Source: a virus (lineage: Duplodnaviria > Caudoviricetes). From it: a DNA stretch of 61,052 bases. How positions within the stretch are numbered: the stretch's first letter is position 1; every line of letters begins with the position of its first letter. The stretch is taken from positions 1-61,052 of IMG/VR virus record IMGVR_UViG_3300046780_000585. One strand, 5' to 3'. Of the stretch, positions 39,133-45,923 are shown in pieces. The position numbers and the translations under genes were made by a program. Below the pieces are notes generated by a model, which worked only from the letters and a program-made list of their open reading frames with translations, ran no database searches and was not told the origin of the DNA.

Positions 39133-39714
39133 CTAGAACAGCCCTCCCGCAATCAACATCGTCGAGTAAGGGCCGGTCATGCCGGTTGAACCGGTAGGGC
39201 CGGTCGCTCCGGCCGTGCCTGCGCCACCAGCAGCACCTGTCATGCCGGTTGGCCCCGTCGTTCCAGGCGCTCCAGCACCGCCAGCCGAACCAGCTTGACC
39301 TGTAGCACCAGTCGGCCCGGTCGCCCCCGCCGATCCGACGCCGCCGCCTGCACCTACAGCACCTGTCGAACCCGATGGGCCGGTCGCTCCCGTCGATCCA
39401 ACACCAGTCGGACCCGTCGGTCCCGAACCACCGCCACCCGCGCCTGTTCCAGTTGGCCCAATGGCTCCCGTCGGACCCGTCGCACCAAGTCCGGTCGGCC
39501 CGGTTGATCCTGTATTGCCAACCGGGCCCAATCCGCTCGGCCCGGTCGGTCCGATCGATCCCGTGAGCCCGGTTGCTCCTGTCGGTCCAGACGGTCCTGC
39601 CGGTCCTGTCGTAACTCCAACAACCCACACACCCCGCGACGTGTAGGTGTAGGTCACGCCGCCATACGTGTAAGTCTGTCCTACCGACGGAGAACTGGGG
39701 AAATCGATCGGCAT
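39133..39714 (-). CDS. Collagen-like fibre protein
   Basis: [13 protein letters not shown] followed by GXT repeats. Confidence 0.8.
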
Positions 39715-40523
39715 CAGACCACCCACCCCGGAAGCAGCAGCGTCACCGCTCCACCACTACCACCTCCGCCAGGCCCGGTCGGTCCCGCCAGCGGCGGTGC
39801 CACCTGCACCCACTGCGTGGAATTGCCGTCGTCGATCCAGATCGACAGGATGCCGGTCGTCAGATCGTACCAGAGATATCCCGGTGTCGGAGAAGCCGGC
39901 GGCGTGCTCGAGCCCGTGTAACCACCGCCACCGCTCCCACCCCCGCTTCCCGCGGCTCCCGTCGGCCCGGTCGCACCCGTATTGGCAGCCGACCCGCCAG
40001 GGCCTGCAGGACCCACCACCCCCTGTGGACCAGGCGCTCCAGTAGGCCCAGCGGCTCCAGCTGCACCGGCACCCCCGGCTGTACCCGACGGACCGGTGGC
40101 GCCCGTGTTGACTGCGGTGCCCGGTGTTCCAGTCGGTCCGGTCTGCCCGACGCGCCCGGTCGGACCCGTGGCACCAGTCGCACCAGTCGCGGACGCCACG
40201 CCAGGGATGCCCGTAGGACCCGTAGAGCCCGTCGGCCCGAGCCCGCTGGCTCCCGTCGCGCCCGTTGGTCCAAGCGTCCCGACACCCACCGGGCCAGTCT
40301 GCCCGATCGATCCCGTCGGACCCGTGATTGCCAGGCCGGTTGGCCCGATTGATCCCGTCGGTCCAGTGAACGCGCCAAGTCCGGTTGGACCGGTAGCCGC
40401 CGCTCCGGTAGGACCCGTAGGACCGGTGCCACCCGTCGGACCGCCAGCCGGACCCGTATGCCCGCCGACAACCACGACCGGTCGCGTCGACACGATGGCA
40501 GGTTCGTTCTTTATGACCGCCAC
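39714..40523 (-). CDS. Collagen-like fibre protein
   Basis: GXT repeats; [18 protein letters not shown]. Confidence 0.8.
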
Positions 40524-42104: not shown

Positions 42105-44805
42105 TTATCCGCCCGAGATGACCTGCGCCTGACAGAGCGCAGTTCCGTCGATTACCTGATCCTTTATCTTCATAACGAGACGCTACTCTCGCTACCGCCT
42201 TTCGGCTGCTGCATGTTCCCATGCAGAGGAGACTATATCATCACCCACTTGGGGTGCCGGGCGCTTCGGACCGCTTGGTCCTACGAGCTTGCGCTCTAGT
42301 CGTTGCACCTTCCGCTCACGCGGCTTGGCTCAGGATTGGCCGGTCTGGCGTTCCCCTGAATTCACCCGGTTGTTCGATGCCGATTACTCGGCAAAGGGAC
42401 TTCAAGATTGTTAATCCGTACACCTGCAGGCCGCGAAGGATCTGACCAAACGTTAGCTCAGAGCGCAGAGTCTCGAGTTTCGAAATTTGCGATGCGAACG
42501 TAATCCCGTGGGCGTGGCCAGCAAAGATCGGAAACTCGCCCGCTGAGAAGTTGGCTGAATCGCTCGCGTTGGTCGGCAGCAGGTTCGAGATATACAACGT
42601 GAATCGATCAATCATTCCGAGCCGGCCATTGCGCAGCATCGAGACCGGATCGCCCGACAGATAGGCCTGCCTGAGTTCCGACTGCTTGATCTGTCGTCCG
42701 GCCCACGCCGGCATCACCACCCAGCGGCCGACCTCCGGGATGTTCTGCTCGTCGAGGCACTCCCCCATGCGCAGAAGCAGATCAATCAGATTGGACTGAC
42801 CGGCCGTCGCACCCTGCCCGACCACCGTGATCGGCGTGCCCTTGATGCCGAGGTTGAGATTGGCGTACTTCCCGGCCGTCGCGCCGCGGTTGGTCGCCGC
42901 GCATTGCCCGACGATGCCGTCGAGCACTTCCGTGTCGACCGCGATCTTTAGCTGCTGTGCCGCATCCCTTATCTTCATAACGAGACGCTACTCTCGTTAC
43001 CGCCTTTTGGGCTGCTGCATGTTCCCATGCAGAGGAGACTATATCATCACCCCTTTCGGGGGCCGGGCGCTTCGGACCGCTTGGCCCTACGAGCTTTCGC
43101 TCTAGTCGTTGCACCTTCCGCTTGCGCGGCTTGGCTCAGGATTGGCCGGTCTGGCGTTCCCCTGAATTCACCCGGTTGTTCGATGCTAATTGCTCAAGCA
43201 AAGGGACTCTGACGAATCCGACCAAATAGACAGGACATTCAGATCGCTCTGCACCTCCATCACGTCGTCGAGGATCAGAGAGAAGTAAAAGCCGTTGCCG
43301 ATGTAGAGTTCGACCGAGCCTCCAGTCGGTCGATCAAGACCGAGCAAACCGTCCGCCTGATACTTGCGGATCGTGATCGTAGGCTTCGTCCGGATTTTCA
43401 CCCGGTCGCCTTGGTTCGCGATTTCGCCTTCGTAGTCGGTCGCTAGCGTCTCAGGCGCTTACCTGATCTGCTTCCCACTGTCGCTTACGCTGTTGCGCAC
43501 CAGGTCCCATGAACGACGGAATATCACGTACCGTCGCCAGAAGCCTGGCCACTTCAGCGCCCGGACCACTCAGTCTGTGCGGCTGGACTTGGAGTTGTTT
43601 CATCGCCAATTGGATACGCTCCGCGTCGCGGAAATGTCCCATCCTGGCGCAACCAATAAGAAAATACGCCTGATCGTTCTTGAGCACCATGTGCTTGGCC
43701 AATGCAGTTTTACCGCTCTCGAACATCGAGCGGACTTTGGCCGCGTCCATAGACAGCACCCAATTAACCATCGACGTACCATTCTCGGTTACAAACTCCT
43801 GAACGGATCCTCCGTAAGCCTTCTGCAACAGATCGATACCAACCCGTTCGAAGGCTTCATCGCATACCGAAAGCACCGGCTGTGCCGACATGCCCTTTGG
43901 AATGCGAATTGCAAACGATCCGTTCCCGTCGATATATCCGGCTGCCCATTTTCGTGTCGGATGTTTCGGCATTGGAGATGCGCCTCGCGCTGCATCAAAC
44001 CGCTGCTTCCCCACCTGCACGTCCATAACCTCGCCGTTCATATCGATGGCGCAGTCGGCAAGTGCTCTTTTCAAGACCAGGAACTTGCGAAGCCGCATCA
44101 GAACGCTGACAGCCTTGGTGCCCGCTGTATTCCAGTGAAAAGCACCACTCTTTTCATACATTCCAATATGCCCCCACACTTTATCGAGTGAAGGCGGCGT
44201 CAGACTGGACGCAATCAACTCCATGAAACTACGACCCGGTGCTTTCTGACAAAACGAAACTACAGCGTAAGCACGCTGCGGCCCTGTTCCGTCCCAGTTT
44301 TCGCGCCGCATCGGTGGATTCCACATCAACTGAATGCTTCCATCGCTATCCAACAGTCCTGCAAGGTACTTGTCGCTGAGCCGGTCCTTGCCTCTGGTTC
44401 CCTTCGGTTCCAGTTTTTCAGGTCCGGTATTGCTCGAACTACCGTTTAATTCGAGATCGCGCTCAACACGGTTGAGGCGTAGCTTTCCGACAAAAGCCGG
44501 ACCGACTATCGCTTCAGGGGCAACCCCTGCTGGATCACTTAGTCTGTGCGGGTGCGTGCTCATGCTTCCCTCGGGTTCCAGCCAACTATGAAGGTTCCCG
44601 TTTTTCAGATCCAGTTTAAAGAAGTCCTAGCGAACTTCTCGACCAGCTTAGCTGCATTCAGAACTGATCAAATTTGGCCAGCTTGGAACCAAATTTCCGG
44701 AATAAAGCCCGTTGATTGGAGTAGGTTTCCGGTAGACCCTACGGGGGTCAGGGGCGGGACTGAGCCTGACGTTGCGCCAGGAAAACCCGCACTCGGGATA
44801 GGCAT
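42105..44805 (-). CDS. Major capsid protein, six exons: 44805-44688, 44654-44633, 44482-44449, 43440-43216, 42966-42414, 42160-42105 (335 aa spliced)
   Basis: Joined exons total 1008 nt with no internal stop: ..GFIPEIWSAKLVEKFYASTVLSAISNTDYEGEIANQGDRVKIR..WSDDAAQQLK..RGLQVYGYQVIDG..*; follows the scaffold gene. Confidence 0.92.
42161..42413 (-). mobile_element. Group I intron 5 (253 nt, no ORF, IA-like)
   Basis: Exon GGAU pairs with IGS GUCC; P3 CCGGGU/GCCCGG; P7 GACUA/UAGUC; two extra hairpins after P7; terminal G. Confidence 0.92.
42967..43215 (-). mobile_element. Group I intron 4 (249 nt, no ORF, IA-like)
   Basis: Exon GGAU/IGS GUCC; P10 CGUC/GAUG; CAACGACUA..GAUAUAGUC; near-identical to intron 5. 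Confidence 0.92.
43441..44448 (-). mobile_element. Group I intron 3 (1008 nt) carrying a LAGLIDADG ORF
   Basis: P1 CUCGAAU/GUUCGAG; P10 CGGU/ACCG; P3 CCGGACC/GGUCCGG; P4 CUGG/CCAG; P7 5' CAGACUG; terminal G. Confidence 0.88.
43451..44563 (-). CDS. Double-motif LAGLIDADG homing endonuclease/maturase
   Basis: YLAGLLDSDGSI and WAAGYIDGNGSF; the ATG lies in intron 2. Confidence 0.88.
   Translation of the reverse strand: MSTHPHRLSDPAGVAPEAIVGPAFVGKLRLNRVERDLELNGSSSNTGPEKLEPKGTRGKDRLSDKYLAGLLDSDGSIQLMWNPPMRRENWDGTGPQRAYAVVSFCQKAPGRSFMELIASSLTPPSLDKVWGHIGMYEKSGAFHWNTAGTKAVSVLMRLRKFLVLKRALADCAIDMNGEVMDVQVGKQRFDAARGASPMPKHPTRKWAAGYIDGNGSFAIRIPKGMSAQPVLSVCDEAFERVGIDLLQKAYGGSVQEFVTENGTSMVNWVLSMDAAKVRSMFESGKTALAKHMVLKNDQAYFLIGCARMGHFRDAERIQLAMKQLQVQPHRLSGPGAEVARLLATVRDIPSFMGPGAQQRKRQWEADQVSA
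44483..44632 (-). mobile_element. Group I intron 2 (150 nt, minimal)
   Basis: P1 AGAAGUU/GACUUCU; P3 CUGGAUC/GAUCCAG; P4 CGGG/CCCG; P7 CAGACUA/UAGUCG; P8 CAGGGG/CCCCUG; P9 CCGGC/GUCGG; terminal G. Confidence 0.9.
44655..44687 (-). mobile_element. 33-nt core-less group I-type mini-intron (intron 1)
   Basis: UCCAAGCUGGCCAAAUUUGAUCAGUUCUGAAUG; 9-bp P1 with U.G at the splice site; 5-bp P10; terminal G; contains an in-frame UGA. Confidence 0.8.
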
Positions 44806-44834: not shown

Positions 44835-44864
44835 GGTCCTTATAGGATACGGGCGGCCCCCGGT

Positions 44865-45923
44865 TTATCGGTAGCGCCCCTCGCGCTGGGCTGCGAACAT
44901 ATCGGCCTCCAGCCGAGCCCACTCGGCTTCGCGACCGACATACGCACCTTTACGGTGCTGTTCGTACAGCTGCTTGACTTGGGCGCGTGAGTAGATGGGT
45001 TTGTCGGGCGGCACCGAGGCATCGCCTCCGGTTGCCGGCCTGGCCCTGCCAGGGGCTGCCAAGGAGCCTAGATCGACGGCCGGGGTTCGAGGAGGCGGGG
45101 CCTGCTGAACGGCGGGCGAAGGCTCGATGTGACCCGTGGCTTGCTCTTCCTGTAGGAATCCTCTGAAGAACGAGATGACTCTAGGGGCGTCGGCCGCTGA
45201 AATCGCTTCGTTCAACAATTGCTGTCTAACACGGCCCGAAAGCATGTCAAGCGAGAGCAGCCACCTGTGCCAGCGGGGATCGCGGTCGACGTCGCGGAAG
45301 TTCGGCACCGCGAGCTCGAGGCGCTGGTCCAGGTTCCGCCGCGCCTCGACCGCGAGGCGCCGCTGCATCTCGGCGTTCTGCTGCTTGATCTCCTGCAGCT
45401 CGGGGCTTAGCGCCTGCGCGGCGGCGCGCTGGGTGAAGTTGATCAGGTCGCTGCCGTAGTTCTGGACGTCCTGCTCCGTCACGTAAGCCGGTGGCGGCGG
45501 CAGCGAAGACGGTGCGGTGCGCCCATTGTGATAAACCGTCTGCTGGGTCTGTAACAGTTCGTTACCGAGCTGGGTCATCTGCTCCTGCATCTCGGCGAGC
45601 GTCTTCTGCGACGCGTCATAGCGCCCCTTCATCGCCAGATAGCGATGCTCCCAATTCTCAGGCTTGGGCTCGGAGGAAGGAGCGGGTTCCGCAGGCGCTG
45701 GCTCAGCCGGTGGTGTGGCTTGGGCGGCGGGAGCCGGCGCCTGCGGAGCCGGAGCTTCCGGCGGCGGGGCAGAGGGTTGCTCCGGCGCGGGCTCAGCAAG
45801 CTGGCCTTTCTTGTTGTAAAGCGCATCGACCGCCGCGGCACGCTTTTTCACGGCGTCGGGGATCGAGTCCGGATCGATCGGCAGTTTCGCCATCGGCTTT
45901 TCGTCGACGGTCACGTCAGCCAT
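44865..45923 (-). CDS. Capsid scaffolding protein
   Basis: Pro-rich linker, WEHRYLAMKGRYD coiled coil, ends AAQREGR; directly upstream of the capsid gene. Confidence 0.78.
   Translation of the reverse strand: MADVTVDEKPMAKLPIDPDSIPDAVKKRAAAVDALYNKKGQLAEPAPEQPSAPPPEAPAPQAPAPAAQATPPAEPAPAEPAPSSEPKPENWEHRYLAMKGRYDASQKTLAEMQEQMTQLGNELLQTQQTVYHNGRTAPSSLPPPPAYVTEQDVQNYGSDLINFTQRAAAQALSPELQEIKQQNAEMQRRLAVEARRNLDQRLELAVPNFRDVDRDPRWHRWLLSLDMLSGRVRQQLLNEAISAADAPRVISFFRGFLQEEQATGHIEPSPAVQQAPPPRTPAVDLGSLAAPGRARPATGGDASVPPDKPIYSRAQVKQLYEQHRKGAYVGREAEWARLEADMFAAQREGRYR

Follow-up and report, generated by a model that had tools for sequence, protein, structure and literature searches.

The minus-strand segment 44632-44483 of the window, by which we mean the whole 61,052-nt stretch of phage DNA that was analysed, is with a probability of about 87% a genuine minimal group I intron in the phage major capsid gene. 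Its anatomy, exact junctions, covariation, and membership in a family of related introns are established here, whereas we infer its chemistry and its splicing in vivo. Termed insertion (b), the intron is exactly 150 nt long, with its 5ʹ splice site after U44633 and its omega-G at 44483, and it interrupts a Phe codon between UU and C in the major capsid gene of a soil phage. All coordinates of the intron, its neighbours, and the capsid gene refer to the minus strand (Table 1). The translation of exon 1 matches the major capsid protein of Rhizobium phage RHph_TM27A and an uninterrupted allele of the gene (L012). When the exons are joined at the proposed junctions without insertions (a), (b), and (c), the host reading frame is restored and the capsid N-terminus is that of L012 (133/133 aa). 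Retention of (a) leads to a stop at aa 46 and retention of (b) to a stop at aa 56.

Table 1. Features of the interrupted capsid gene, in window coordinates.
Feature	Position	Strand	Remarks
Capsid exon 1	44688..44805	minus	ATG at 44805; runs to ...IPEIW and one further U
Insertion (a), 33-nt core-less group I-like mini-intron	44655..44687	minus	follows U, ends in G
Micro-exon 1, 22 nt	44633..44654	minus	encodes (S)AKLVEKF
Insertion (b), ORF-less group I intron	44483..44632	minus	P1 and P3-P9 without P2; basis: helices, family, covariation, exon joining
Internal guide sequence of (b)	44619..44626	minus	pairs with exon 44640-44633; U44633•G44626 at splice site
P3 of (b)	44614-44608 / 44536-44530	minus	
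P4 of (b)	44600-44597 / 44575-44572	minus	
P5 of (b)	44594-44593 / 44579-44578	minus	flanked by AA/AA loop (J4/5)
P6 of (b)	44570-44568 / 44552-44550	minus	
P7 of (b), 5ʹ strand	44540..44546	minus	bulged A44545; G44544 of the putative guanosine-binding pair; partner 44503-44508
P8 of (b)	44529-44524 / 44520-44515	minus	
P9 of (b)	44501-44496 / 44491-44486	minus	
370-codon ORF	43451..44563	minus	AUG in P6 loop of (b); spans 3ʹ half of (b), micro-exon 2, and (c)
Micro-exon 2, 34 nt	44449..44482	minus	encodes YASTVLSAISN
Insertion (c), 1008-nt group I intron of the (b) family	43441..44448	minus	endonuclease gene in P6 loop
Rfam-detected group I intron	43015..43241	minus	RF00028, 77.5 bits; match extends into flanking exon
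Rfam-detected group I intron	42209..42429	minus	RF00028, 83.4 bits

In P1 of the intron, the exon sequence GAGAAGUU (44640-44633) pairs over 8 bp with GACUUCUU (44626-44619). All 10 full-core family members and all 4 core-less elements examined likewise end the 5ʹ exon with a U in a wobble with a guide G. P2 is absent, J1/3 being only 5 nt long, and the P3/P7 pseudoknot is present. P7 carries a bulged A and the pair G44544:C44504 (alignment columns 152:196), which we take to be the guanosine-binding site. P5 is poorly defined in the window copy, with only 2 clear bp and a 13-nt loop. P10 (CUA/UAG) abuts the guide sequence and is short, at 3 bp versus 6 bp in a homologue (L008). Peripheral domains are lacking altogether: there is no P2, P5abc, P9 extension, or GNRA loop, and with L9 as UUUU and L8 as UUG there are no tetraloop-receptor clamps. 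Single-sequence minimum-free-energy folds of five independent family members give the same P1, P3, P4-P5, P6, P8, and P9; the z-score of (b) itself is modest (-1.81), and 8 of 200 shuffled sequences fold equally well. The first-pass annotation had described a complete core in 150 nt at these coordinates, with an intact G-binding pair and neither P2 nor periphery, and the sequence and the alignment bear out each of these points.

In an alignment of 11 related introns, standard pairs fill 97.4% of the 385 pair cells, a figure to be read with 30 of the 36 pairs built into the model behind the alignment and 6 of the 11 sequences forming that model's training set. When partners were slid by one to three columns as a control, the same alignment gave 28.0-39.7%. 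The remaining 6 pairs, those of P7, are 100% paired though outside the model. Both sides have changed in 29 of the 36 pairs (P3 6/7, P7 4/6, P8 5/6, P9 6/6, P6 5/5, P4 2/4), and 0 of 500 shuffles reached any of the observed covariation measures. The guanosine-binding pair is G:C in 11/11 introns, and the bulged A is present. The helices of this family are thus kept in diverged relatives by compensatory change.

ORF-less relatives of 137-160 nt (137, 145, 145, 146, 150, and 160 nt) occupy five capsid-gene sites. The L008 homologue lies 9 nt upstream of the (b) site and has a P1 of 8 bp and a P10 of 6 bp. L096, L130, and L145 carry the same core at three further sites, with a P1 and a P10 that fit the site in each case; these members, of 137-150 nt, have no internal endonuclease ORF (L096 2010-2159, L130 4393-4257, L145 5356-5211). 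At the L008 site, L066 holds a homologous intron with a LAGLIDADG ORF in P6. The intron (b) looks like a derivative of such an endonuclease-bearing member from whose P6 loop the ORF body was lost. A ribosome-binding site, an AUG, and the final codons (HPHRLS...) would be what the loss left in P6, and in the (b) lineage the frame of the LAGLIDADG gene in the next intron now starts from these remnants.

The intron belongs to a phage capsid-gene family that escapes detection by Rfam. RF00028 gave no match to (b) at E<=10, whether 6 kb or 261 nt was searched, and none of 10 other loci from the wider family attained its gathering score. RF00028 has been reported to lack some group I subgroups and, possibly, to miss phage variants (PMC11878797, in the part of that report available). 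Because the Rfam model misses the family, capsid genes of such phages would be annotated as broken. A scan of genome contigs for a P7-P8-P7ʹ pattern found nine stretches, of which only one (L151) has matches, weak ones, to model R1. A blastn search with the 158-nt element against 50,697 phage records returned one chance 24-nt match (E=2) and, at such sensitivity, no relative in a cultured phage. No description of a (b)-type family, or of any natural full-core group I intron below 200 nt, was found in the literature searched, which excluded most subscription journals.

The capsid gene carries five insertions. Insertion (a) has a P1 of 9 bp and a P10 of 5 bp, with no core and no P7. Insertion (c) is homologous to (b), with a P1 of 7 bp and its own P3-P9 and P10; model R1 matches its 5ʹ part with 23.1 bits. 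The frame that begins in (b) and runs into (c) encodes, from about residue 52, a two-motif LAGLIDADG endonuclease. Its AF2 model (pLDDT 82.8, pTM 0.82) shows a two-domain alpha-beta-beta-alpha-beta-beta-alpha fold with two LAGLIDADG helices, and in the PDB Foldseek matches it best to LAGLIDADG meganucleases of the monomeric kind (E 8.8e-13 at best, TM about 0.55-0.6). Pfam LAGLIDADG_1 matches the ORF below the Pfam cut-off (E 0.0082), and a sequence search of the PDB with the endonuclease gave nothing significant. The PHROGs label "HNH endonuclease" (phrog_5046, E 1.3e-10) is in our view wrong, given the predicted LAGLIDADG fold.

In the proposed splicing pathway, the guide sequence of (b) would pair with the last eight exon bases, placing the U•G of P1 at the cleavage site. 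Free guanosine, bound at G44544:C44504 of P7, would then attack after U44633, and the terminal G44483 would next occupy the guanosine site. The 3-bp P10 would hold the 3ʹ exon, so that the joined exons would read ...EKF followed by YASTV....

Two rival readings fare poorly. That (b) is a decaying relic, never removed from a non-functional capsid gene of a dead phage or an assembly artefact, is very improbable: the contig is rated 97% complete, the insertion-bearing sequence is present in 22 runs, each with 50% or more of the sampled words, and in each of two other soil/rhizosphere runs a 1387-nt DNA contig spans 43357-44743 with 0 differences. The exon pieces, moreover, sum exactly to an intact protein, and the compensatory changes in diverged relatives argue against decay. 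These points are to be set against the number of insertions in the gene, one of them (33 nt) core-less, and against the P7 of (c), which has a G·G at the guanosine-binding position. Among the 24 runs listed with sampled words, two are RNA (word share 0.05); reads of these two metatranscriptome runs cover 42661-42846 and 44856-44900 only, outside (a)-(c), and so have no bearing on splicing. Even less credible is a single large intron, 44687-43441, with a remote 3ʹ splice site and with the 22-nt and 34-nt micro-exons internal to it. Such an arrangement would delete 19 conserved residues that the two short pieces encode exactly, residues that are kept in L008 too with junctions 9-10 nt away, and every one of the insertions ends in G and carries a P1 of its own with U•G. 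Phage T4 offers a precedent for the single-intron arrangement, with group I cores that have long ORFs behind them and their 3ʹ splice sites far away. A model combining a single ~1.2-kb intron (5ʹ splice site after GAUCAGU) with a +1 frameshift in exon 1 was dropped once the gene had been compared with L008, L066, and L012 and its joined exons had matched the last of these in 133/133 aa.

A more serious alternative, to which we give appreciable weight though short of even odds, is that (b), though genuine as an intron, does not act autonomously: its core would need either the RNA of a neighbouring intron, with which it would form a larger ribozyme, or the help of a protein, whether the LAGLIDADG protein serving as maturase or a chaperone from host or phage. 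Without peripheral stabilising elements, protein-free self-splicing is uncertain, and because tetraloop-receptor clamps are missing (L9 being UUUU), (b) may well depend on the LAGLIDADG protein or a chaperone. The frame for a LAGLIDADG-fold protein extends across (b) itself, and engineered tandem group I introns have been reported to form one large ribozyme (PMC10136302, in the part available). Every element of the catalytic core is conserved, however, and the members of 137-150 nt in L096, L130, and L145 stand at sites without an internal endonuclease ORF.

With (b) taken as a genuine intron, a relation to its neighbours can be considered. The first-pass annotation had named (b) as the best candidate for serving the introns on either side. 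For the downstream intron this is not supported, as (c) has its own P1, P3-P9, and P10, and introns of the (c) type stand alone, without a 150-nt neighbour, in L009/L010 and L130. For the upstream insertion the idea is consistent with the data but unproven: with only P1 and P10 and no core, (a) plausibly borrows a neighbouring core, and another group I intron begins 21-81 nt downstream of every core-less element found, but in several relatives that neighbour is of the Rfam type and not of the (b) family. We tentatively suggest, at somewhat less than even odds, that (a), reduced to P1, P10, and a helix formed with the exon after it, docks its P1 hairpin into the core of (b) in cis, 22 nt downstream, and is thereby excised with the exon included; that such "ghost" introns survive only with a group I core within about 80 nt downstream; and that the endonuclease is translated from the start codon inside (b), across the 34-nt exon, and into (c). 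Since its frame starts inside (b) and runs into (c), expression of the endonuclease and splicing of the two introns would compete on the same RNA.

If the introns of 137-160 nt are active, they would be, among natural group I ribozymes with a full core (P1, P3-P9), the shortest that we could find; they would serve studies of folding and structure, and engineering, as minimal systems, and would test how much peripheral loss a group I core can tolerate in vivo. The five insertions, the 22-nt and 34-nt exons, the core-less mini-intron, and the bridging endonuclease frame together form a natural system for asking whether one ribozyme processes its neighbour. The Azoarcus intron has P2 and two tetraloop-receptor clamps, and Azoarcus-like IC3 introns have P2 and GNRA tetraloops in L2 and L9 that dock into helical receptors; (b), with a 5-nt J1/3 in place of P2 and UUUU as L9, is not filed as IC3. 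The Azoarcus intron measures 205 nt (PMC13168695, in the part available), and the family introns are shorter by about a quarter to a third. On these lengths, the earlier suggestion that (b) may be among the smallest natural intact cores appears reasonable, but it does not stand alone, being one of a family of 137-160 nt. Like the Azoarcus intron, (b) is compact, with no large peripheral domains, with P1, P3-P9, the P3/P7 pseudoknot, a G-binding pair, and a terminal G; unlike it, (b) is 150 nt long, lacks P2, has non-GNRA loops, lies in a phage protein-coding gene, and has no RF00028 match.

Tandem group I introns separated by short exons are described for phage Twort orf142 (a 23-nt exon) and Coxiella burnetii 23S rRNA (a 34-nt exon) (PMC10136302). 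As there, several group I introns share one gene here and the exons between them are of 22 and 34 nt, so that cross-talk between neighbours is possible; whereas those systems, as far as the available part of the source describes them, show exon skipping between complete introns, here (a) is core-less, yet the exon must be kept. Certain elements of fungal nuclear rRNA genes have P1, P10, and a pairing between intron body and 3ʹ exon, and lack most core helices, though a putative P7 is kept; unaided splicing in vitro is reported for one of them (PMC3160393). Within what that report's available part covers, insertion (a) resembles these elements in P1, P10, and the pairing of intron body with 3ʹ exon but is shorter and without P7, whereas (b) keeps the whole core. 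The capsid gene of mycobacteriophage LittleE contains a group I-type intron of about 820 nt with a LAGLIDADG-like endonuclease, its ORF on the opposite strand (PMC3706429, in the part available). The two phages are alike in having a capsid gene with a mobile group I-type intron and a LAGLIDADG-like endonuclease; unlike LittleE, as far as it is described there, the present gene holds an ORF-less derivative of 150 nt, and its endonuclease frame starts within one intron and stops within the following one.

Intron (b), an ORF-less group I intron, sits within the major capsid gene, on the minus strand of an IMG/VR record of 61,052 bases whose completeness is rated 97%. The gene was identified by its similarity to that of Rhizobium phage RHph_TM27A, whose capsid protein is annotated; nucleotide identity is 67.9% across the quarter of the query that matched. 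In the near-identical phage allele L012/L013, the sequence ...GFIPEIWSAKLVEKFYASTVLSAISNTDYEGEI... is uninterrupted; in the window, the same stretch is split by three insertions, (a), (b) and (c), that leave micro-exons of 22 nt and 34 nt between them. Joining the exon pieces at the proposed junctions yields 133/133 residues identical to L012, and if any one insertion is retained the reading frame stops, at residue 46, 56 or 59. Each insertion terminates in G, and the U before it can wobble-pair with a G in an internal guide sequence. Because 43357-44743 is matched with zero differences by a 1387-nt contig in each of two independent soil/rhizosphere DNA runs, this arrangement is not an assembly error of the window record. 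A contig from DNA run X2 (depth 6.9) joins 43437 to 44689, omitting 1251 nt, which suggests that an allele free of the three insertions co-exists with the intron-bearing allele in a soil metagenome. Downstream of the capsid module lies an ORF of 269 aa in which GPTG/collagen-like repeats abound (39714-40523, minus strand), probably a fibre protein.

Introns and related elements in the window and in related phage loci (L numbers)
Feature	Source	Position	Strand	Length	Remark
Insertion (a)	window	44687-44655	minus	33 nt	P1 of 9 bp
Insertion (b), group I intron	window	44632-44483	minus	150 nt	P1 of 8 bp
Insertion (c)	window	44448-43441	minus	1008 nt	P1 of 7 bp
Rfam group I intron	window	43241-43015	minus		77.5 bits; further down capsid gene
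Rfam group I intron	window	42429-42209	minus		83.4 bits; further down capsid gene
R1 match outside training set	L145	5211-5348			95.5 bits
R1 match outside training set	L096	691-828			86.3 bits
R1 matches outside training set	L117, L146, L098
ORF-less member	L130			137 nt
ORF-less members	L145, L096			145 nt
ORF-less member	L145, second site			146 nt
ORF-less members	window; L096, second site			150 nt
ORF-less member	L008			160 nt
Neighbour downstream of core-less element, family of (b)	L008/L107, L145, L066, L176				R1 matches
Neighbour downstream of core-less element, Rfam type	L019, L178, L181
Neighbour downstream of core-less element	L167, L170, L189				called by eye only

Within (b), the guide sequence lies between an L1 of 6 nt and a J1/3 of 5 nt, which leaves no P2. 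P3, an A-rich J3/4 of 7 nt, P4, an AA/AA loop around a short P5, and P6 come next. The 3ʹ part comprises P7 with a bulged A and a G:C pair, P8, a J8/7 of 6 nt, P9 capped by UUUU, and a closing AAG that supplies the terminal G. Elements P5abc, P7.1/7.2 and P9.1/9.2 are missing from (b), as are GNRA loops. The structural description in the first-pass annotation, covering the helices, the AA/AA loop, the guanosine-binding pair and the lack of P2 and periphery, is correct at every point. Minimum free energy folds of five members, each taken alone, contain the same helices; the z-score of the window copy alone is a modest -1.81. The Rfam group I model RF00028 gave no match at (b), even with E<=10 on a 261-nt slice.

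Relatives were gathered from IMG/VR by LAGLIDADG and capsid searches, with a further 60 stretches from a P7-P8-P7ʹ pattern search. The covariance model R1, trained on six aligned ORF-less copies (window, L005, L008, L145, L096 and L130), includes P3, P4, P5, P6, P8 and P9 and excludes P7. A search with R1 over 81 + 56 sources found new full-length members beyond the training set; alignment A3 comprises every match that reached E<=1e-10, 11 in total from 9 sources. Once P7 is included as a pseudoknot, pairing holds in 97.4% of the 385 cells of A3 and both sides have changed in 29/36 pairs; six of the 11 A3 sequences trained R1, and 30 of these 36 pairs were the ones to which the alignment was fitted. 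None of 500 shuffles attained the observed values, and slid controls were 28.0-39.7% paired. P7 itself is 100% paired, with four of six pairs compensated, and this covariation is independent of R1. Moreover, the guanosine-binding pair is G:C in all 11 sequences. The observation of (b) is confirmed as a very small new variant of the group I intron, whose autonomy awaits experiment.

Intron (b) is one of a family rather than a singleton. ORF-less members occupy five different capsid-gene sites, and the guide sequence of each fits its own exon. L008 has the same core at a site 9 nt upstream from that in the window, with a new P1, a 6-bp P10 and the same protein restored, and the homologue at this site in L066 bears a LAGLIDADG ORF in its P6 loop. 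In many endonuclease-bearing members, the final ORF codons (...HRLS...) are the P7/P3ʹ strand. Because the P6 loop of (b) retains these codons together with a Shine-Dalgarno-like GAGG and an AUG (44563), the 150-nt form looks like the outcome of in-frame loss of the ORF body. The RF00028 gathering score was reached by 0/10 further loci of the wider family, and blastn of (b) against cultured phages in INPHARED returned no match.

From AUG 44563, a 370-codon frame (44563-43451, minus strand) takes in the 3ʹ half of (b), the second micro-exon and (c), crossing the 34-nt micro-exon in a frame other than that of the capsid. By hand count on the sequences, this frame stays open across the indels that separate the window from L008 (+12 nt) and L145 (-3 nt). 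Intron (c) of L010 has its own AUG, which is lost in the window's (c). From residue 52, the protein has a predicted two-domain LAGLIDADG fold (pLDDT 82.8), and its top PDB structure matches are I-OnuI-like meganucleases (E down to 8.8e-13).

The first-pass annotation also put (b) forward as the best candidate to serve both neighbouring insertions. P1, P3 (CCGGACC/GGUCCGG), J3/4, P4-P5, P7, a large P8, P9 and a tail are all present in (c) itself, whose P6 (GGC/GCC) closes the ORF loop. In L009/L010, (c) occurs alone, without (a) or (b), so dependence of (c) on (b) is not supported; the locus sequence examined there gave no R1 or RF00028 match, and L010 has no neighbouring intron within that sequence. 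By homology, the P7 3ʹ strand of (c) (43480-43474, minus strand) reads CAGUGGG, so that two Gs face each other at the guanosine-binding position. At the nucleotide level this also holds in L005, L008 and L010, and in L145 it is inferred from the endonuclease ending ...RQW.

Insertion (a) has no core; it has a P1, its P10 lies directly against the guide, and the nearest core in the window is (b). A pattern scan for similar elements gave 26 distinct matches, 16 of which were set aside by eye for unrelated flanks; the 10 kept, all in capsid context, and the window's own element, which occupies another site, represent 11 lineages of core-less 33-57-nt mini-introns (window, L008, L019, L066, L145, L167, L170, L176, L178, L181 and L189). 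Their helices are limited to P1, P10 and one between tail and exon. In eight of the 11, the partner of the tail is exon positions 7-13, and the pairing tracks serine-codon changes (UCA, UCG, UCC, AGC); each tail helix alone is not significant against shuffles. The next group I intron starts 21-81 nt downstream in every lineage, and no allele, whether one of the 37 distinct uninterrupted ones or one bearing introns, has a core-less element alone. That such an element borrows a core in cis from the neighbouring intron is therefore plausible, if unproven, and such borrowing is not specific to the family of (b). Service of (b) to (a) is consistent with these observations but likewise unproven. Tandem group I introns whose exons measure 23 nt and 34 nt have been recorded, as has cooperation among adjacent introns (PMC10136302). 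Any role for neighbours awaits experiment.

Two paralogous Rfam-type introns of the same gene (43241-42966 and 42429-42161, minus strand) are both sited after CGGAU(U). For the first, the wobble rule places the 5ʹ splice site one base away from where the reading frame does, after U43216 or U43215. The capsid site after AAGCUGGU holds an Rfam-type intron in L178 and an intron of the (b) type in L008 and L066; one insertion site is used by two intron families.

The Azoarcus intron is usually called the smallest self-splicer. No natural full-core group I intron below 200 nt was found in the literature searched, whose coverage is incomplete, and within that limit the first-pass placement of (b) among the smallest natural intact cores holds good for the whole family. 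A fungal paper gives most nuclear group I introns as >200 nt and describes a small number, putative or degenerate, that span 56-81 nt and in which most core helices are absent (PMC3160393). The Azoarcus intron appears in PMC13168695 as a 'compact 205 nt intron', whereas the ORF-less members of the family of (b) measure 137-160 nt.
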